A DNA stretch of 48,041 bases, from contig MU271265.1 of NCBI GenBank assembly GCA_021432655.1, forward strand, positions 62,001-110,041, in the 5' to 3' direction. The notes beneath the pieces were generated by a model. It saw only the letters and a list, made by a program, of their open reading frames with translations, was not told the origin of the DNA and did no database searches. The position numbers were made by a program, and so were the translations under genes. Below, one piece after another: positions 3,107 through 48,041 of this stretch (position 1 is the stretch's first letter; every line of letters begins with the position of its first letter). This stretch comes from Atractiella rhizophila. Its lineage: Eukaryota.

Positions 3107-5715
3107 TTATACATCTTCCAACTGAACGTTCGTAGTACTGCTGCTGGGCAAAAGCGTATAATCTCCCCTCGTAAACTTCGCTCCTAGTCTTGCCCCCAAT
3201 CCCTCCATTCTCCCACTCTGAGACTGGGCGACGCGCATCTTCATAGCTTTCGCAGCGCGGAATCCACCTGCGGCACAGATCGGCCAGTCAGTCAGCACTT
3301 TATCTGAAGGACGGGAAGGATGAGGTTAGAGAAGAAACGAACCTGGAGGCACGTCATAAACCCTAGTATAGTCCACCCCCAGCTCCCTCCCCCTCGTCCA
3401 AAAGTCCATACAGTTCCTCCGAAATCCGAGATCAAAGGGATTCGCGGCGCTCTTGCTCTTCGCCAGACCCTCCGTAGCCTTGCCCCTCGTGAACCTGTCC
3501 AAGCCAAGCACGGTGAGGAGGACACCCATGCCTCCCTTTGAGTGGGCATGCGCATGAGGGTGCGCGTGTCCAGTAGAGGATTCGGAGGAGAGCGAGGAGA
3601 GGTGGTCTCGAGCTCCATGATGCGAGTGAGAGTGGGAGTGGGAGTGGGAGTGTGAATGGGAGTGTGAAGACTGAGCCGCCATGGAGGTTCCGCCCCTACC
3701 GCCCATGTATCCGTACCGTCCGAGGTTTGACACCTCCAGAGTCGTCATTTGGGTGCCGACTTGGTAGAGCTGCGAGATGAGGAGAATGATGGTCCACGTC
3801 AGCTGTAACGTCGCCCAAAAGGACACGGCGAGGGCGAAAGCGTCGTAGTTGGATGCGGAACAAAGGGGCGTGGGCATGATACATGTGCTGTCGAAGCCTT
3901 CGTTCGATGGTTCCCAGGCAGGTGCATATTCTGTGAAGTAGGCAATGAGGAGGTGGTCGAAAGTTATTATGCCTGATATGAGGAAGAGAATGAAGAGGAG
4001 GAATTGCCGGTGATTGTTCACTCCAACTAATCAACAAATGAGATTCTTGGGCAGAAGAGAAGGAGGGCCAAACGCACTGCAGCTCCACGTCCAAGGACAG
4101 TGATGGTCGTGTCTCGCAACACAGCGATTACAACTCCTGCAGTGTTTGGATCTCAGAGGTTTCCGTGCCTTCATCACCGTGATTAGCCATCTTCCTCCAT
4201 CTCGATATCCCGATGGAATATAAAAGGAACCTACCATACAAGCCAAACAGAAGTTCTGTCCGTCATACCGTCCCGTTATGACTAAGTTTTCAATCTCCTC
4301 CTTGAGCTCAGCATCGTTCGCGGGCTCCTTGACGAAACCAGGATCGAGAGTCATAGCTCTAAACAGGTTGTAGGAGCACAAGAGGATGGATATTCCGAAT
4401 ATGAAGTTTGCAACGGCGAATTCTGTGCTCACTGTTACAATCCAAACCTATCATTCAGCACGAAATTTGAGGGAGGAGAAAGCCCACTAGAGACCAGACG
4501 TGTGAGCCACACGTATCCGACCCAAAACACGGAACCCGAAACGAGTCCAGCCAAATAAGGAGACTTGATCATTTTGTCCGGGCCACCGCTCTTATGCACC
4601 TCCAAAAGGACCTTTACGACGACATGATGCATCGCGAACGCCTCTCCGGCAGCAGCGAGGAGTCCAGTCCACCATGGCAAGAGGGCGAGAGTGTAGAAGA
4701 TGAGGAAGAGGAAGAATCCAGGGGCGAGGAAGACTGCCAATTTCGTGTTTCTCTCCGTCAGCGGTCCACTGCGCAACCGCCCGGTTTCGTCCATCCCCGC
4801 TTCCCGGAGCGCGCGATGGTAGGCAGCTTCGCTCTTCAGCTCTCTCGCCAAATCCAATGGCGTCTTCCCCTGGTTCTCCTTCCGCCTCACATCTCCTCCA
4901 GCTTCCAGGATCCGTTTGATGCACCCACTGTTTCCTTTCACGACAGCCCAATGAAGACACGTCAATCCTCCCTCGTCCGCTTTATTTGGATCCGCCCCCG
5001 CCCTCAGAAGGAGCTCTACGGACAGAGCATCGCCTTGATAGCACGCCCACGAGAGGGACGTATGTCCTTGCGCATCGGATGTGTCAACGGCGAGAGGTTG
5101 GGACGTGAAGAGGTAATAAGAGACGAGCAGGGCGGAGGACGAGTGGACGGCTAGGTGGAGGGCGTTGAAGGATTGAGAGTCGGCCAGTGTAGGGTCAGCA
5201 TTGTACGAAAGGAGGAGGTGGACGATGGCAACGTAGCCATTCCTGAAATCCGGCAAAAAATAGCCGCCGTCAACGCCAGACTTTCCCGCCAAGCGAGCAG
5301 CAGGAAAGACGAACCGAGATGCCCAGTGTAAAGGAGTAGCCTCCAACTCCCCTCCTTTTGCATCCACCTCCGCACCGTTATCTAGCAACAGCTTGCACGC
5401 CATGAGCTGATTATTAATAGCAGCCCAATGCAAGGCTGTGATATTCTGTGCATCTCTATCGTTTGCTGTCGCGGTTGGTTCCTTCGGTGCATCAGGGAAT
5501 AAGAGCTCTTGGAGAGCGTGCAGGTCGCCTTTCAGTCACGTTTCAAGCGTCAGCAGTTATACTTGGGCGAAAGGAAAGTACGGACCCCGCTGAGCGGCGG
5601 CGTGCAAGGGAGGGAGTGCGGGTGCCTCTTCGGCGGGTGGAGCGACGGTGGTCGTCTCGAAGCTGGTATCTGTCGTGGCGGATGACTTTGGTGACACTTT
5701 CAGCGGACTGGACAT
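3107..5715 (-). CDS. AKR1: Ankyrin-repeat DHHC palmitoyltransferase Akr1 (multi-exon)
   Basis: Ankyrin repeats ([30 protein letters not shown]), TM segments, [49 protein letters not shown] at 5715 inferred. Confidence 0.93.
3618..3667 (-). repeat. (His-Ser)n hexanucleotide-like coding repeat within AKR1
   Basis: + strand gagtgg/gagtga/gagtgt repeats; encodes [15 protein letters not shown]. Confidence 0.85.
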
Positions 5716-6207
5716 CGAAGTGAACAGGCTGTAGATGAGGTAAGATTCAAGGAGGAGTTGGAGTTCGTCACTTAGTTTCACTTTAGTCTGCTCTCACTAA
5801 CCACGGATATTCGCCTTTGCTTTTCGCAGTCAATGCAGCAATGGTAATTCTTATTAACATTGTTACTCTCAGAAGTGGTAATTTGTAAGAGGAAGAACAT
5901 CAATTGCGGACCGCTTATCGGGAATTTTTTCTTCATTGTCTAGTTAAAAGTCTCGACGCCTTTCGAAGCAATAGGTAGTGTCGTTTTGAAGTTGTCCACA
6001 AGCAATAAAACGTCGCGAAAGCCTGGGTAAGCGCGAGAGACACGAAAATGACCAGAAATCCTATATCTTATTTCACTAGATGTGCTGAATTTGAACCAGT
6101 ACTGCAACGGCAGACATTACAGTGAAACTACTCTAGCTAGCCTCGCTCAAGGTCCTTGATTCTCTCGTTTTAGAACACAGAGATCTCGCATTGTAAAACA
6201 TACATAC

Positions 6208-17239: not shown

Positions 17240-19012
17240 TTAAACCCATGCACGGACGGCGAAGCTCGACAGGGAACCAGCTGCAATGCCGGAGTAAAGG
17301 AACAACGTCATGGACGTGCTTGCGCTCTTCGGCACTTGATCAGCAAGGAAGGCAGAGAAGAAGGCGGACTAACTGAGATCTCGACGGGCTCCAGAGAAGG
17401 ATCTTGAATGGCGTTGACCATCACGAGTGCGCTGACATAGCCATTCGACACGGAAAATGCCAAAAGGACCAATAGGTATCCTATGTCAGAATTGATGATT
17501 GGAGTCGAATCCGCTTGACTAGCCTGGCGGATGTTGCAGAAGAGGAGTAGAGGCTATACAACCCCAGTAAGTTGAGCGGATCATAGTGATAGCAGGTCCT
17601 GACTTACCAAGAATACGAGTCTTGCACCGCTGGCCCATGCCAAACTGTTCTTAGTTCCTCTGTTGAAAGCTGGAACTTGAGGAAGGTTACGACCGAACCA
17701 GTCTCCTCCGTTAAAGAGGACAAATCCAAGTGGAATCCAGACTTTGTCGCTGATGCCAGATACCGAAGCAATTCTGACCGTAATGCTTGGAAAGAGAGAA
17801 AGGGTGAGGAGAAAAACGAAGAAGACAGAGAATCCCCAAACGTAAATCTTCTTGGCTACTTTCCACTGACTGACATGAATATCAGAAGGACTTTTCGTGT
17901 GAATCAGTGGAGACGACTCCGGATCGTCGTAGAACGAATTGTGAAGCGAGCGCAAGGAAGAGCTCATCACTTTGTCCCACTCATCCGTCCTCGTCAGGCG
18001 TCGAAAAAGAACGAACGAGTATGCTGCGAACGCAGTGCAGACGAAGAAGAAGATTGTAGGACCCCACCCGATGCGTTCATCCTCATTCCATTTCTCGGAA
18101 GGGGAGACGGAGCTAATGAGTTGAACGATGGAAACTAGGAGACCGATTGCGCCTTGTCCGCTGAAACACGCTTGGAGGCATTGGGGTGAGAACAACCCTG
18201 ATAGGCCCATGATCGCATTCTGAAAATAGGCGGCATAGCAGGCGATGATTACGTGCGTCAAGACGAGGTAGGGGACGACTATTGCCGCAGGGAGGCTGGG
18301 TGTTGTGGACGAGAGCAGGAGTAAGAAGAGGAGTGCTGTATCATCCAACTGTTAGCACATTAGTCTTCCTTCAGTACCCCAGAGGAAAGTCTGAACAACA
18401 AGTCATTGTGGGGATTGTATCGAATGCGCAAATCTGGACAATGTTAGTTGCTCTGGAAGGCAACTTGTGCGTTCGCCGGGCTCTTCCCTTGTGTATACTC
18501 AGGTCACCCATAACACAGCTAAAGGCGTGCGATGGTACAAGCTGTCCCGGCGCTTTGCTTTCTGCTTCTACTAACTAAAGCCGGTCCTTGACTAGACGTG
18601 TACAACAAGAATGCGAAAGAGAAACAAGCTCTCTCTGCCTCCCATTTCTTTTCAAAATAGGGTACGAACCCGTTATTCCCAAAATACTGTTCTCAGCTCG
18701 AGCTTTCATTCCCCTCTACGCAAATCATTAGTCAATTACACAACGTGCTCCTGAGGCGAAACACACAAGCTTCATGCTTCCATTTGCAATGACCAAAGCC
18801 ACCAAGCTGCTAGCAGTAAACGATAAAGGCAACCAGGAAGGTGCGCCATCTCGGACTGAGTTTGGTACGTTGGAACGAGAAAGTAACGCTGAGAAGTATG
18901 GCAGAGAGACTAGGACAGCATTCCAAGGGAGAAGAATAGTGCATCCTAGCAGGAAAAAGGTGAGGTACTGTGAATTCGGGTCATGCTGCCGTGATGGAGA
19001 GCTGGAAGACAT
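17240..19012 (-). CDS. Equilibrative nucleoside transporter (ENT/SLC29, Fun26-like; multi-exon)
   Basis: FFLLGCTILLPWN, SGQGAIG, TLSLFPSIT, LFNGGDWFGR, ARLVF, SNGY; many hydrophobic segments. Confidence 0.9.
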
Positions 19013-40121: not shown

Positions 40122-41383
40122 TCAAAGATAATAAGCCTGTCTGCCCACGTTCACTCCATACTCTGCCAGCGCCGGCGCGAGGTCGTCCATCGTCAACACC
40201 GTCCTTGCACGATCCTGCACCCACAAGTCAAAAAAAAACAAAGTAGTCATCAGTGAGTGTTTGATGTGCTGGAGAGAATAGATAAAATGGAAAGGGAGAA
40301 AGACGCACCCTCCTCCTGTTCTCTTCTCCTCCGTGTGTGGAAGCGGCGGTCCGAGTCCTGGCGTATTGGAACGCGTCGCCTATGATGTCGGAGACGAACT
40401 TTTGTGCAGAGAGCGCGATCAGCCTCGATCTGTCATCCCGTCATCAACCAAACATCAGTCATCAGCGTCAGCTTGCGGCGTGATACCGTGAGAGAGAGGA
40501 GAAAGGGGAGGGATGGAGACAAACATTCGGACGTCGGAGGTGTCGAAGCCGCTGCGTTGGAGGTAGTATTGGGTGACGGAGTCGGGGATCTGTGTAAAGA
40601 TAGAATGTAAGCTGGAACAAATGAGAGGAAGAGGAGCGTACGATGGGCCGGTATTCGTCCATAAGGAGGAGTAGGTCCGCGAGGGTCCTGTTTATGAGTG
40701 GTGTTAGTAAATGCATGGTATAACTAAAACAGAAAGAGGGCATGATAGCTGTCATGTCACTTTTTACGCGTTTGCGGTCGCAAAGTGTAGATGAAGCACC
40801 CCGTCTCTGTAGAAGAAAGAATGACATACTGGTCCCTCCTCTCCTCTCTCCACTCCCTCCTCGTTCCACCGACCTCCTCCCTCTCTAGCCTCTCCATCTC
40901 TTCTCTCCTCTTCGCCATCTCTGCCGTACCCTCCAACTTCAGAACCTCCACAGCGTCAACCTCCATCTTCTCTGCCTCCTCCTCGACTTCCCCAGAGGCT
41001 CCCGTTCCCGGCAGAGGAGAATCCGGAATCTCAACCACCTCCCTCTCCTTCCCCTTCCCATCCTCTCCCTCTCCCTCTCCCTCTCCTCCCTCCCGCTCCC
41101 CATCCTTCTCTTTCGCTCCCTCCTCCACGCCCTCCATCTCCTCAGCCTCAGCCTCACCCTCCCGCTCCTCCTGCACCGCCTCCGGCTCTTCGACGACCTT
41201 CTTCCCCTTCCCCCTCCCCTTCCCTCCCCCCGTCGTATTTCCACTTACGCTCCCTGCCGCAGCGCTGCTCGTGGTCGAAGTGGAGTTCTGCCGAGCTGTC
41301 ACGCGTGACGAGCGGCGCGAAGGCTGCGGGGTCACGGGAGGAGGAGACGCGGCGGATTGTGCGGAGGGGCAACGAGGAGGCAT
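40122..41383 (-). CDS. TAF10: TFIID/SAGA subunit Taf10 (multi-exon)
   Basis: LLLLMDEYRPI-IPDSVTQYYLQRSGFDTSDVR...LIALSAQKFVSDIIGDAFQYAR...VLTMDDLAPALAEYGVNV histone-fold motifs; long acidic N-terminal region. Confidence 0.92.
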
Positions 41384-41465
41384 GTTTGTGGCAATGTTTT
41401 GGATGAGGGCTGGGTGGAGATGGCCGTAGTTTAGTCTGTAGATTGTAGTGGGAAGGGAAACAGAC

Positions 41466-41470
41466 AAAAA
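41466..41470 (-). terminator. RNA polymerase III T-run terminator of the tRNA gene
   Basis: TTTTT on the minus strand, 3 nt after the discriminator base. Confidence 0.75.
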
Positions 41471-41473
41471 GAG

Positions 41474-41556
41474 TACGAGAAGTGGGGATCGAACCCACGA
41501 CCTTATGCGATTAAGCGCTGTTAAGCATATGCTACTACCAACTGAGCTATCCCCGC
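41474..41556 (-). tRNA. tRNA-Val(AAC) with 9-nt canonical-position intron (41510-41518)
   Basis: GCGGGGA-TA-GCTCAGTTGGTAGTAGC-A-TATGC-TT AAC A[GCGCTTAAT]C-GCATA-AGGTC-GTGGG-TTCGATC-CCCAC-TTCTCGT-A cloverleaf; A and B boxes present. Confidence 0.9.
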
Positions 41557-41720
41557 TTTGATTCTTCCTCCGTTTAGTTAGTATATAATACAGTAAAGCA
41601 AAGGACGGTTGCCACGTGGCTCGGCCCTTCCCGCCGGGCAAATGGAAAAGAAGCAGGAAAACGACCTCGACCTCAATACGTCCACTTTTTCACCTTAGAA
41701 TTCCCAGCGAAGGTGCAGCC

Positions 41721-43349
41721 ATGTCCTCCTTCCTCTCACGAAAGCCACACGCCCGCATATCCTCCGTCACCCTCAACCCGTACTCCCCGACGGCGTCCCC
41801 GAATCCCCAAGCGACCTCGTTCACCCAATCCAATTCGTCATTCGACTCGTACGCCGCCCATCCTGCTAAAACAACCTATTCCAGCTCTGGAACCACATTG
41901 TCCCTCACCACGACGGTATCGCACCATGGGTCGTACTTTTTGGCAGGGCTGCTGCAGTTCATGTCCCTGTTCTCAGATCGGACGGTAGACTTGTTGGCCA
42001 CTGATAGAAAGGTGAGGGAGAACTGTCTGAGGACGGCAGTGTTGCAGGGAGTGGTGTTGGTCGCTGTATTGGTCGGGAAAGCGTTTGGACTGGGAAGCTT
42101 GTACACCGTTCGTCTTTTTCCTTTCTTTTTCCTTTTCCTTTTTGGAGCGCTCGGCGTTGAGATGTTCGGTTCGGTTGGGCAGGCGACAGTGGTCGTGCCT
42201 CTCTTGTTGGGAGCGACATATCTCGGCTCGACAGCTGGGTCGGACCCGCCATCCGCTGCTACCCTCGTCACGAGAGCATCGGTCTGTGCGGATTGGGTCG
42301 TCGCCACTTTTTCACTCGCATACCTCTCCCAAAAGGGCGGATTTTGGATATGGATCCTCCTCCAGCCGTTCGTCATCGGATACACAGCTCTGACCAACAC
42401 CTACTTCATCTTTGAGTGCGTCATCTCTCCCTCTTTCCTTATTTCCTTCTTTCTAAAGAACCCTGGGTGGGAACAGTCCATCTTGGTCTTCGAAGCACAT
42501 GGTGCTCTCTGCCCAATTCAAGACCCTCCGTCAACACTGGGCCTACTTCCTCGGCCTCGCCCTCCCTCCGACGCTCTTCCTCTCCCTCTTCTCCCTCCTC
42601 AACATCACCCTCCTCCCCCTGCTCATCTTCTCCGCCTCCATCCCACTCCTCCAAACCCTCCCCGCCACCTCCCGTCCCCTCCCGATCTCCCCAGACTACC
42701 CTTCCGCATGGGGAATGGGCAGCACAGCCGGCACAGGGATGCGAGTCGGCGATTCGATCTCGTTGATGAGGAGCGAAGGAGCTTTCGATGGCGAGGACAG
42801 CGAGGCGGAGGAGCCGGTTTGCTCCCTGGACATCCCTTCTTCCCCAAGTCCCTCCCCGTCCTCTACTTTGCGCAAATCGTTGCCACGGCTGTGAACGGCG
42901 CGCTTGGATTGGAGGGAGGGAAGGGACGGGGAGCGAAGAAACATGCCGGGGGTGGGTTCCATCAGAACCATCAGGCGCAGGGAATGGCCAGTGGCATGAA
43001 CGGATACTCGTATGGACAGAACCAGATGCATGGCGTGAACGGATACGGTGGGTACGGTTCTCAACCTCAGCAAGGACACGGATATGGAGCTCCGAACGGA
43101 ATGAATGGTATGAATGGGATGGGCGGCATGAGCGGAATGAGCGGGATGGGGTACGGTCATCAACAACAGCAGCAAGGACAGGTCCTCTTCGATTATAATC
43201 AACAGAGCCAGCAACAGCAGGAAGAAAAGTCGTACCCTCCCCCACCTATGGCTAGGAAATCTTCCGTCCCCCCACCTCCCCAAATTAGACTCCAGCAGCC
43301 GAGCATCTCTGGCGGACCACCGGTGCCTCCTGGAAAGAAGGACGACTGA
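41721..43349 (+). CDS. EI24 (etoposide-induced 2.4)-like membrane protein with G/M/N/Q-rich low-complexity tail; probable frameshift at about 42814
   Basis: TM segments, YFIFE, LRQHWAYFLGLALP, RPLP and HPFFPKSLPV, resembling fungal EI24 motifs as I recall them. Confidence 0.6.
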   Translation: MSSFLSRKPHARISSVTLNPYSPTASPNPQATSFTQSNSSFDSYAAHPAKTTYSSSGTTLSLTTTVSHHGSYFLAGLLQFMSLFSDRTVDLLATDRKVRENCLRTAVLQGVVLVAVLVGKAFGLGSLYTVRLFPFFFLFLFGALGVEMFGSVGQATVVVPLLLGATYLGSTAGSDPPSAATLVTRASVCADWVVATFSLAYLSQKGGFWIWILLQPFVIGYTALTNTYFIFECVISPSFLISFFLKNPGWEQSILVFEAHGALCPIQDPPSTLGLLPRPRPPSDALPLPLLPPQHHPPPPAHLLRLHPTPPNPPRHLPSPPDLPRLPFRMGNGQHSRHRDASRRFDLVDEERRSFRWRGQRGGGAGLLPGHPFFPKSLPVLYFAQIVATAVNGALGLEGGKGRGAKKHAGGGFHQNHQAQGMASGMNGYSYGQNQMHGVNGYGGYGSQPQQGHGYGAPNGMNGMNGMGGMSGMSGMGYGHQQQQQGQVLFDYNQQSQQQQEEKSYPPPPMARKSSVPPPPQIRLQQPSISGGPPVPPGKKDD

Positions 43350-44130
43350 GTCGATGAGTCCAACGGAAGGGTAGATGGCTCGGAGGGTGAATTCAAAATG
43401 AATTGCGGTGGAGGTTGCGTTGCTGTTGGTTGTGCGAAGGAGACGGAGCGTTGATCGCTCTGCGATACGATTCTTGTGGAGACATAGTTGGTGTGACGAT
43501 TACTTCAGTTATGATCCATGGGAATGTCGGATGATTCTATCGTTTAATTATACGAGAGCTAAGATCGAAGGCATTTTCATTTCTAAGTCGTTAAATATCT
43601 CTTCATACCACAACATGCGGGCATTGTGTCTATTTGACATGGAGCTATTTTCGAGGGGAAGAAGAACGAGCGATCTATTTAACTCCCCTCTAGGCTTGTC
43701 TATTCATTCCTGCAGGTTCGATTCCACTCTATAGCCCCATCACCTGTCAAAGCTACGGCTTCTCCTAGCCCATCCGCCAGGTCCCACCGGCGCGCTTCGT
43801 GGTCATCAAACGTTACACATGCTGGAACGGGGCACGAGCACCCATTGAAAGCCCTTCAGAATTGTTAGTAGGGGTTGTAGGTGGATTCGACGGTGACGTA
43901 CTTTTTTCAGTTTACTATGCAGTTTCTCTCTAATCAATTTTCAATACGTATTGCAGGCCCGACCTCCAATAGCTTTACACTGCATTACTTTGCATCACTG
44001 TGAGAAGCTGGCGCAGACACTACGCTCCCGTAGTTTAGTCTGTTCAGGCTAAAAGTCCTTCCAGTCAGACAGGCTCAGTTTCCACTTTCCATCAGTTCCA
44101 ACAGCCTTCGAATTCGTACAGGAGCTATAG

Positions 44131-44136
44131 GAGTCA
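44131..44136 (-). promoter_or_regulatory. Putative Gcn4/CpcA-type element (TGACTC)
   Basis: GAGTCA on the + strand, about 30 nt upstream of the asparagine synthetase ATG. Confidence 0.35.
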
Positions 44137-44161
44137 CATATAATCCCATAGATACTCTGAA

Positions 44162-46241
44162 AATGTGTGGGATATTCGCCATTCACAACTACGAAGGCGA
44201 GTCGAGCTTGCGCAGAACCAAATGCCTTGCCTTATCGAAGAAGCTACGACATCGAGGCCCAGACTGGTCAGGTTGCTACGAGAATGGTAACTCGATACTA
44301 TGTCATGAGCGTTTAGCTGTCGTCGGCGTTGGTACGTAGCTTTTTTTGTTAGCAAAAGAAGCAATGGTGCGAGAGCTCTCTTGTAGATACTGGTGCTCAG
44401 CCTATCGTGAACGACGAAGGCACGCTGGCACTCTGCGTCAATGGAGAAATTTACAATTACAAAACATTGAAGAGATCTCTGCAGGACTGCAGCTTCAAAA
44501 CCCATTCTGATTGCGAGGTCATCATGCATTTGGTGAGTTCAGCCACTTGTACGTAACACCAAAAAAGCTGATCGTGATCGTCTTGCACTTTTTGTGCGTT
44601 GTGATAGTACAAAAAATGTGATCTCCCATCGCTCTGTAATCAGCTCGATGGAATGTTCTCCTTCGTCCTCCTCGACTCTCTCGATCCGCAAAATTCAAGA
44701 ATGGTCGCGGCACGAGATCCGATAGGAATCACGACTCTCTATATGGGATCCTACAACTCGACTTACTGCTTCGCGTCAGAGATGAAGGGCTTGCCACCAG
44801 AATGCACGAACATTATCTCCTTCCCTCCTGGTTGCTTTTGGGATTCACAGACTGGAGAAATTCAGAGGTATTACGAACCGGCTTGGTTCAAGGTCCCGAC
44901 CCAGATCCCGACCACTCCAGTCGACTTTGCCCTCTTGCGTACCAGTCTTGAGAAAGCTGTGCGGAAGCGTCTCATGTCAGAAGTTCCTTACGGTGTACTT
45001 CTGAGTGGAGGATTGGACAGTAGCTTGATTGCCGCCATCGCTGCTCGGGAGACGGAAAAGGTGGCCCGCGCTCAGATGCAGCGCGAATACCTCAAGCGAG
45101 CGTCGAACGAGGATCTGAGTCAGTCGGTTTCTTCACTGGATCGAATGGATGTTGGGGATTCGGATGAAGAAGATGACAGCTCTCTCACCTCCTGGCCAAG
45201 GTTACATTCCTTTTCCATAGGTCTTCCAGGTGCTCCCGATCTTCTGGCTGCTCGACAAGCGGCTTCATATCTCGGAACAGTGCATCATGAATATACCTTT
45301 ACCGTTCAAGAAGGCATTGATGCATTACAGGACGTGATTTATCACCTCGAGACGTTCGATGTCACCACAGTTCGTGCCAGCACACCGATGTATCTTCTCA
45401 GCCGCAAGATCAAGGCATCAGGAGTGAAAATGGTCCTTAGTGGTGAAGGAAGCGACGAGATCTTTGGTGGTTACCTCTACTTTCATAAAGCCCCAAGTGG
45501 GAAGGATTTCCATCAAGAATGTGTGGACAGAGTCAAGAACTTACACACTGCCGATTGTCTGCGGGCTAACAAGTATGCCTCCTTCAGTGTTGCCCTGCTT
45601 AGTTTTGCTGACATTTCTGTCGTGAAGGAGCACAATGGCCTGGGGACTTGAAGCTCGTGTACCTTTCCTCGATAAAGAGTTCCTATCGGTTTCGATGGAT
45701 ATTCGACCCGAGGAGAAGATGTTTGGTTCGAAGGAGGTGGATGCTCAGGGACGACCGAAGATGGAGAAGGTGCATTTTTCTTTATTTCCATCTTAGGAGG
45801 AGCCTTATCCATCACCGTCAGTACATTTTGCGCAAAGCCTTCGACATCTCTCCTGGAGGACGACCGTACCTTCCAGACTCCATTCTCTGGCGACAAAAGG
45901 AACAATTTTCGGACGGTTTGAGCTTTCTTCCATCGCATATTCTGTCTGTCTTAAAACCAGCGTAGGCGTAGGCTACTCTTGGATCGACGGCATGAAGGAA
46001 CATGCCTCAAAGGTCGTCACCGACGAGCAGCTGTCATCCGCCAAAGATCGCTGGCCGCTCGCTACGCCTGACACAAAAGAAGCATACATGATCAGGGAGA
46101 TGTTCGAAAGCCATTTCCCTGGTGAAACAGCCGCAGGAACCGCTGTCAGGTGAGCTCCATCCTTCCGTGGGCTGCGTACATTCTGATTTTGCGACACAGA
46201 TGGGTGCCGAGAACAGATTGGGGTTGTAGCTCTGATCCCTC
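44162..46241 (+). CDS. ASN1: Glutamine-hydrolysing asparagine synthetase (multi-exon); the last 37 nt lie in the reversed block (48041 to 48005)
   Basis: MCGIF (Ntn Cys), [74 protein letters not shown]. Confidence 0.97.
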
Positions 46242-47515
46242 CACATGTTTCATTAGGGGTTCATCTCTCCACCACACGGAGTTCTAGGTATAGTCCACTC
46301 ATCAACTTACGTCCTATCACTACAACGGAATAAAGCGGAGCGTTGTTACCCTAATTACGGGATAGGAGTAGTGACAGGTGTGGTAGTCCTAGTCCTCTCC
46401 TACCCATACTAGCCCAAAGAAGAAGTGACATGAGGAGTCGCCTCCCACTTACGACAGAGGTTACAGCAGCTCGACCAGCACTTCTATATCTATCACTTCT
46501 CGAAGCTGTCACGGCGACTGTGACTGCACCTCGGGATCAACTAGAACAGAGTACAACTCTACCTCATCCACCTCATCCTAATTTTACACGTCCCGCAACG
46601 GAGAGAGAATGTCCAGCTGGGACCATATCACCACGGAGGACGACGTCTGTAACTACGGCAAACCTAGCTGCGAGAGCTAAAGAACAAACTAAAGAGACTT
46701 AACGTGCACCGTACTCTCACATCGAACGACGTGTATTGTTTTACTATACTCACTTCTTATATATTCGGTCTCAGGTGTGTGGATACGAAAAAACGAACTA
46801 AACTAAACTACGATTGTCCGACTCCCTATGATACCATCTAACAATCCTTCGTATAAGTACCACTTTCTTTGACAAAGTGAACGTACTTACGAACGAGTGA
46901 AAGGGAGGATCAACCGTTTCTTGTCAAAAACCGTGTACTGTACCTCTACTCTTCAGAGTCTTTCGAGACATCCTTAATCTTTAACGCCCGTGCGTCAAAC
47001 GTTTGTGTTATCCTAAACCGTCACTGTTTTACACTGTACTGACTCTTAGCTTGGGCGTGGTTGTGATGTCAGTTCTGAGTTGATGGGTTTGGTATGTGGT
47101 TGATGTGGTAGCGCGTTTGAGACATGGAACAACGGAATAAACTCATCCATTCCTTTAAAAACAGTTTCACGGCTTCAGCCAGTGAACTGAGTCAGTACCT
47201 TTTGTTGATAAAAAAACAGGAAATTTATTCGAAATAACATATACCAACCTTTCCGCGACTATGCGCATAAGACCACCATACGAGTCTTAAAACTCCCCCA
47301 ACAACACCTGGTTCTTCAGTGTACTCAGTCAACGCCATTTTTAAAAAAAAAGCAGAAAGTTTACCCGAAACGACATATGCCAAGCTTCCCGCGGCTGTGC
47401 GCATAAGAACGACATACGAGTCTTAAAACTTTCCTGACAACACCCGCCACTATATTCCCGAGTTTTCATGTACACACTCAGTACCAGTTTTGGGCAGCAC
47501 GAAATATATATTCCT
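46242..47515. mobile_element. Probable Helitron 5' portion, readable right-to-left, running off the restored window end
   Basis: Restored sequence has an A^TCCTTATATATAAAG terminus at 47515, an internal tandem repeat of about 136 bp, and an open 157-codon ORF from ATG at 46713 ending AFNYSPDMDLEAHHLSTWGLLCT. Confidence 0.5.
47210..47445. repeat. Imperfect tandem duplication, period about 136 bp
   Basis: Identical core CATACGAGTCTTAAAACT at 47277-47294 and 47413-47430; alignable flanks (gcgcataaga, cgaaa..acatat.ccaa). Confidence 0.85.
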
Positions 47516-47538
47516 ACAGGGTATTTGAGTGCCTCATC

Positions 47539-47701
47539 CAACACGAGGCCATCGCTTCTAACCGAATCACCTGCTATGAAATCGCAATTGACCCTGGACC
47601 TGCTTGAGTTATCGCTATTTAAGTTTTGTTCTTAGAACCTTCTTCTAAGCGACTTCTGATCCGAGTCCCACGGTCGTCTCGAACGTCCCCCTGCGCCAAT
47701 T
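47539..47701. CDS. Last exon of a fungal SDR-type oxidoreductase, readable as the complement left-to-right (minus strand of the restored sequence)
   Basis: CTCAC..TAG acceptor, then LCSGSEDWLSGRYFSVNWDLDELNSDKFKTRILEEDSLKTRL...GGRG*; the LSGRY...NWD.DEL motif is typical of fungal SDR C-termini. Confidence 0.7.
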
Positions 47702-48004
47702 GTTCTTCGCGGTCAGTGGTGCACCCTGGCTTATCTACCTCATATCCTTGTTCCGTTGCATAACACGTGACACGTCTTCGCCTCCGTACGTTAAGGAGAT
47801 TGTAGGCTTTTATTAAGATCTTGTACCATCCATGTGTAGTCCAAGGGATTACTCATTATCGCGAGATGTGATTCGAAGGTGAGTCTTTTCTAGGGACATA
47901 ACGATGCTACTCGTTCAGTTTGGGGTTACTTGTGTTTTAGTTTAGATATGACACCACAGCATTTGGCGCTAACAAGGGTGTCTCAGTCGCCGGATGATCA
48001 TGTA

Positions 48005-48041
48005 AGTCATCCGAAAGAGTACCTGTCGGACCCGAGCAGGT
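48005..48041. CDS. ASN1: Final codons of asparagine synthetase, readable only right-to-left (uncomplemented)
   Basis: TC(46240-46241)+T GGA CGA GCC CAG GCT GTC CAT GAG AAA GCC TAC TGA = S-G-R-A-Q-A-V-H-E-K-A-Y-stop. Confidence 0.93.

Follow-up and report, generated by a model that had tools for sequence, protein, structure and literature searches.

Plain reversal of the last 1,800 nucleotides of an Atractiella rhizophila sequence window conceals the end of an asparagine synthetase gene

DNA strands are antiparallel, and a segment that is excised and put back in the opposite orientation reads as the reverse complement. Draft fungal assemblies commonly contain such inversions, as well as mis-oriented contigs. 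A plain reversal, that is, letters written in the opposite order with no complementing, is to our knowledge beyond any polymerase, ligase or recombinase, and by established chemistry it matches no physical molecule. The gene that meets such a reversal here encodes a glutamine-hydrolysing asparagine synthetase of the ASN1/AsnB type, for which the nearest solved structure is that of Escherichia coli AsnB (PDB 1ct9). The closest protein found to the gene product (P0001, 592 aa; NCBI name, glutamine-hydrolysing asparagine synthase, Atractiella rhizophila) matches this structure at E = 4.2e-171. The carboxy terminus of these proteins is strongly kept, with the motif DPSGR lying within the last 45 residues in 117 of 120 listed relatives and [IV]H following two or three residues further on in 115 of those 117; the three proteins that lack DPSGR there (P0041, P0050, and P0092) end early or differently.

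In the stretch of DNA analysed here (48,041 nucleotides, referred to as the window), the part of ASN1 that stands in true orientation could be modelled as seven exons, the last of them cut short (Table 1). The open reading frame begins with MCGIF, a start identical to that of P0001, in which a cysteine comes right after the initiator methionine; in AsnB this cysteine is the N-terminal nucleophile. The large exon (44608-45570 in the search) matched the Pfam families PF00733 (Asn_synthase; 176.4 bits against a cut-off of 21, 1.7e-51) and PF13537 (GATase_7; 44.4 bits against a cut-off of 25, 2e-11), and it is 99% identical to P0001. SGGLDSS, the ATP pyrophosphatase loop, is present in the translation of 44653-45651 and aligned to the same letters in E. 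coli AsnB. All six introns are bounded by GT and AG and measure 50 to 75 nt each. Contigs from one public sequencing run (X3) skip all six, and contigs from another (X4) skip four of them; these runs therefore contain spliced transcript, or else cDNA, from a very close relative, which backs the gene model without any use of homology.

Table 1. Coordinates of the asparagine synthetase gene and of the reversed block within the window.
Feature	Position	Strand or reading	Remarks
Asparagine synthetase (glutamine-hydrolysing, ASN1/AsnB type), part in true orientation	44163..46241	+	codons 1-580 plus 2 bases
ASN1 exon 1	44163-44331	+	
ASN1 exon 2	44387-44532	+	
ASN1 exon 3	44608-45572	+	large exon
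ASN1 exon 4	45628-45769	+	
ASN1 exon 5	45822-45915	+	
ASN1 exon 6	45966-46149	+	
ASN1 exon 7, part before junction	46200-46241	+	
Plain-reversed block	46242..48041	.	1,800 nt written 3'->5', no complement; true order is 48041 down to 46242
Two direct copies of a 107-nt unit	47202-47308, 47338-47444	.	79% alike, 136 nt start to start
ASN1 stop codon	48005..48007		written AGT, TGA right to left
Last 34 ASN1 coding bases	48008..48041	read right to left	complete the Ser codon begun at 46240-46241, then GRAQAVHEKAY

Just upstream of ASN1 lies a 577-aa open frame on the forward strand (41616-43349) with hydrophobic stretches and an end rich in glycine, methionine, glutamine, and proline, for which no Pfam family was found at E <= 0.001. 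Word depth in run X3 rose to 12,130 at 43042-43208, near the 3' end of this frame, compared with about 190 to 330 over ASN1. Low-complexity or repeated sequence, and not expression, may account for this depth.

As the original prediction had it, asparagine synthetase breaks off at 46241, where the reading frame ends in the middle of a codon with the two bases TC standing over. In the written order, 15 further open codons (46242-46286) precede a stop, giving a product of 595 aa, 578 residues of which are identical to P0001; all of the extra mismatches fall within the tail, where 15 residues that resemble no relative stand in place of the last 12. Read backward from 48041 without complementing, the frame instead goes on as ...SGRAQAVHEKAY and then reaches a stop. 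Restored in this way, ASN1 comprises seven exons and 592 aa; it shares 587 of 592 residues with P0001 and agrees with it throughout the last 30, the last 12 included. The E. coli AsnB terminus, DPSGRAVGVHQSAY, aligns to the restored tail as well. That backward reading would complete the conserved terminus in frame was thus borne out, both by the identity to the end of P0001 and by the prevalence of DPSGR among the listed relatives.

The five substitutions that separate the restored protein from P0001 (window>P0001: P169S, N173K, Q186R, S402T, and E455D) show that the window comes from another strain or assembly, and it represents a strain or allele distinct from that of the P0001 record.

The conserved DPSGR..[IV]H..AY terminus is present only after plain reversal of 46242-48041 and is absent from the sequence as written. 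A six-frame search of the whole window as written found neither the tail peptide nor the looser motif GR..(.)[IV]H..AY; both turn up in the plain reversal alone, right at its first base. A chance match of the backward tail is excluded, because 11 residues and a stop agree exactly at the sole predicted position and frame, and because the peptide has no occurrence in the six frames.

Evidence on the junction itself came from four public sequencing runs (X1 to X4, from three samples), the four that best held the 4 kb before the junction, which were examined as assembled contigs, not raw reads, and compared with window positions 43042-48041. In all four runs, contigs follow the window exactly to 46241 and then diverge. 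Contigs with a loose end behind 46241 numbered two in X1, one in X2, two in X3, and one in X4, with median loose-end lengths of 31 to 147 letters. Compared by eye over their first 30 letters with the reversed end of the window, the loose ends agreed at 29 of 30 letters in X4 and X3 and at 27 of 30 in X1 and X2 (summarised as 27-30 of 30). The differences fell at restored positions 1, 10, and 19, all of which are third codon positions and all of which are synonymous, as is expected between strains. None of the four runs was identical to the window, and each showed scattered base differences at the level of strains. Depth was 0 over 46382-48041 in every run, and this uncovered part carries no evidential weight. 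The first reversed base is placed at 46242 because the contigs match up to and including 46241, after which the restored letters follow, and because a shift of one base either way adds or drops a C and breaks the frame.

A further line of evidence makes no use of the gene. In real DNA, the frequencies of a word and of its mirror word differ, and plain reversal swaps them whereas reverse complementing does not; in the window, for example, ATC and GAT are commoner than CTA and TAG. In a leave-one-out Markov test, each 600-nt window was scored against its own mirror image (k = 1 to 4). All 77 windows before the block favoured the written order at k = 2 and at k = 3 (mean +12.6 nats, sd 5.6, minimum +0.7), and one of the 77 was slightly negative at k = 1 and k = 4. 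The three tail windows favoured the mirror at k = 2 (-14.6, -7.4, and -1.6), and the block as a whole scored -24 to -27 nats (k = 1 to 4).

The trinucleotide mirror score gave the same picture, at -51.4 for the block, whereas the 25 other 1,800-nt blocks lay between +34.8 and +105.2. At a resolution of 300 nt, 11 of 11 windows were negative inside the block and 292 of 307 were positive outside it, where the longest run of non-positive windows was two. The best single change point fell at 46253, 11 nt from 46242, with the gene left out of the calculation. Within the block, the signal was strong at 46201-47100 (-10.7 to -25.0) and weakly negative at 46951-48000 (-0.9 to -5.2 per 300 nt). No further mirror edits were seen elsewhere in the window, either in the 300-nt windows or in the other 1,800-nt blocks, all 25 of which were positive. 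Mildly negative 300-nt stretches outside the block (-0.9 to -7.9) were noted at 40501-40950, 41401-41700, 18301-18750, 1651-1950, and 5701-6150; standing alone or at most two together, they are taken as noise or low-complexity sequence and not as edits. A mirror-word statistic that locates a block of this kind to within 11 nt without a reference could serve as a cheap screen for corruption.

The reversal, its exact start at 46242, and the restored end of the gene are thus established directly, the protein comparison covering 37 nt of the block and the contig comparison the first 30 letters of each loose end. We infer a single reversal spanning all 1,800 nt; 46951-48000 is assigned to it on account of the geometry and of the two well-supported ends. 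Since ASN1 picks up again at the window's final base, the reversed interval ends exactly there. Its length (48041-46242+1 = 1,800) is the exact 1,800 nt up to the window edge that had been claimed.

It is practically certain that 46242-48041 is an in-silico plain reversal of some origin. Since no enzyme makes a plain reversal, the block is the product of software, and a physical, biological origin is excluded by strand polarity. The central claim of the original prediction, an in-silico plain reversal of exactly this interval, is upheld by four independent lines, namely the restored protein, the public contigs, the mirror flip in k-mer composition, and a reverse complement that lacks the tail. 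In the sequence of events that we propose, the true genomic letters of the last 1,800 nt would have been put in reverse order by a computer, not by a cell, in an operation applied to the window after it was cut, whether as a deliberate edit, as a control, or through a slicing fault. Undoing it with x -> 94283 - x, the conversion already proposed and arithmetically correct, gives back a 592-aa asparagine synthetase of the ordinary Atractiella type, with about 1.76 kb of further DNA behind the gene. That the reversal was made on the cut window is very probable, given that the block is mirrored about the final base of the window and spans a round 1,800 nt.

The alternative that survives best, while still improbable, is that the reversal was already in the public source record: a contig or scaffold would stop where the window stops, its final 1.8 kb having been reversed by a script used in assembly, scaffolding, or submission. 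A contig end could indeed fall at this point, and the five residue differences of 592 from P0001 would fit a window taken from an assembly or strain other than that of the annotated record. Against this, exactly 1,800 nt from the end resembles a parameter and not an assembly event, the annotated relative P0001 has the correct tail, and contigs in all four public runs carry the correct continuation. We know of no assembler that emits plain reversals. A reversed contig end deposited as part of a public assembly from an Atractiella-like fungus is rated as slightly more doubtful still. Were it there, the record would contain a truncated ASN1 and 1.8 kb of meaningless letters that routine checks miss.

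Much less credible is that the sequence is real as written, with a diverged ASN1 tail followed by unrelated DNA and a backward reading that is mere coincidence. A gene caller would accept the 15 open codons and their stop, but the exact backward agreement at the only base and frame predicted, the retention of the DPSGR end in nearly all listed relatives, the flip of composition in exactly 46242-48041, and the departure of the public contigs at 46241 to follow the restored letters refute this reading in practice. The least likely of all, a genuine chromosomal inversion or an assembly mis-orientation that left the block as the reverse complement of the ancestral order, would belong to a class of events that is common in draft fungal assemblies, but the tail peptide is missing from all six frames as written (reverse complement included), so the block is not a reverse complement, and the strand-symmetric k-mer score flips sign here where a reverse complement would leave the sign unchanged.

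The content of the block was considered in both orientations. Searches of the block as written assigned a Pfam family to none of seven ORFs (E <= 0.1), and Rfam gave no match at E <= 1 over 45800-48041; nothing recognisable stood in the written order, in keeping with the assertion that six-frame ORFs in the block are meaningless. Aragorn found no tRNA gene in either orientation, and blastn of the block against the rest of the window returned nothing below E = 0.24 in either orientation. The two direct copies of the 107-nt unit (Table 1) sit in presumed intergenic DNA behind ASN1 and, because direct repeats survive plain reversal, they are genuine in the true sequence as well, with letters to be read backwards. 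In the restored block, the roughly 1.76 kb behind the ASN1 stop includes a 200-aa open frame that runs off the far end. A crude codon-usage score with in-sample training did not support this frame as a gene: the best segment in the restored block reached 7.1, compared with 26.9 for ASN1 and 7.2 to 41.3 for 24 other chunks as written.

A metagenome scan recovered 51 loci encoding relatives, the best at 85% protein identity and none near-identical. By blastn, the block matched none of these 51 loci, whether restored or as written. By tblastn, 40 restored open pieces gave a single match (L022; 31 aa, 38.7% identity, E 7.7e-4 in this small set), which is taken as chance, and 38 pieces from the written order gave none.

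For users of this sequence, the matter is one of data hygiene only, and its biological interest is nil. Any ORFs, motifs, promoters, or structures read from 46242-48041 as written are void, and the interval needs to be turned round (x -> 94283 - x) or masked before annotation. Automatic gene calling would give no warning, as the corrupted ASN1, with 595 aa and a stop, looks complete.

Compared with described systems, the restored gene is a full-length member of the glutamine-hydrolysing asparagine synthetases (ASN1/AsnB), with both domains and the DPSGR..VH..AY end, and its five substitutions relative to P0001 are at the level of strain or allele, with no biologically notable difference. For plain-reversal artefacts, a search of the literature yielded nothing relevant in the titles and opening lines of abstracts of the matches listed. 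Real inversions and mis-oriented entries resemble the block in that a segment is turned against its flank and a gene is broken at the junction. They are, however, reverse complements, and hence valid DNA with the same genes on the other strand, whereas the block described here is reversed without complementing, which destroys every gene and signal within it.
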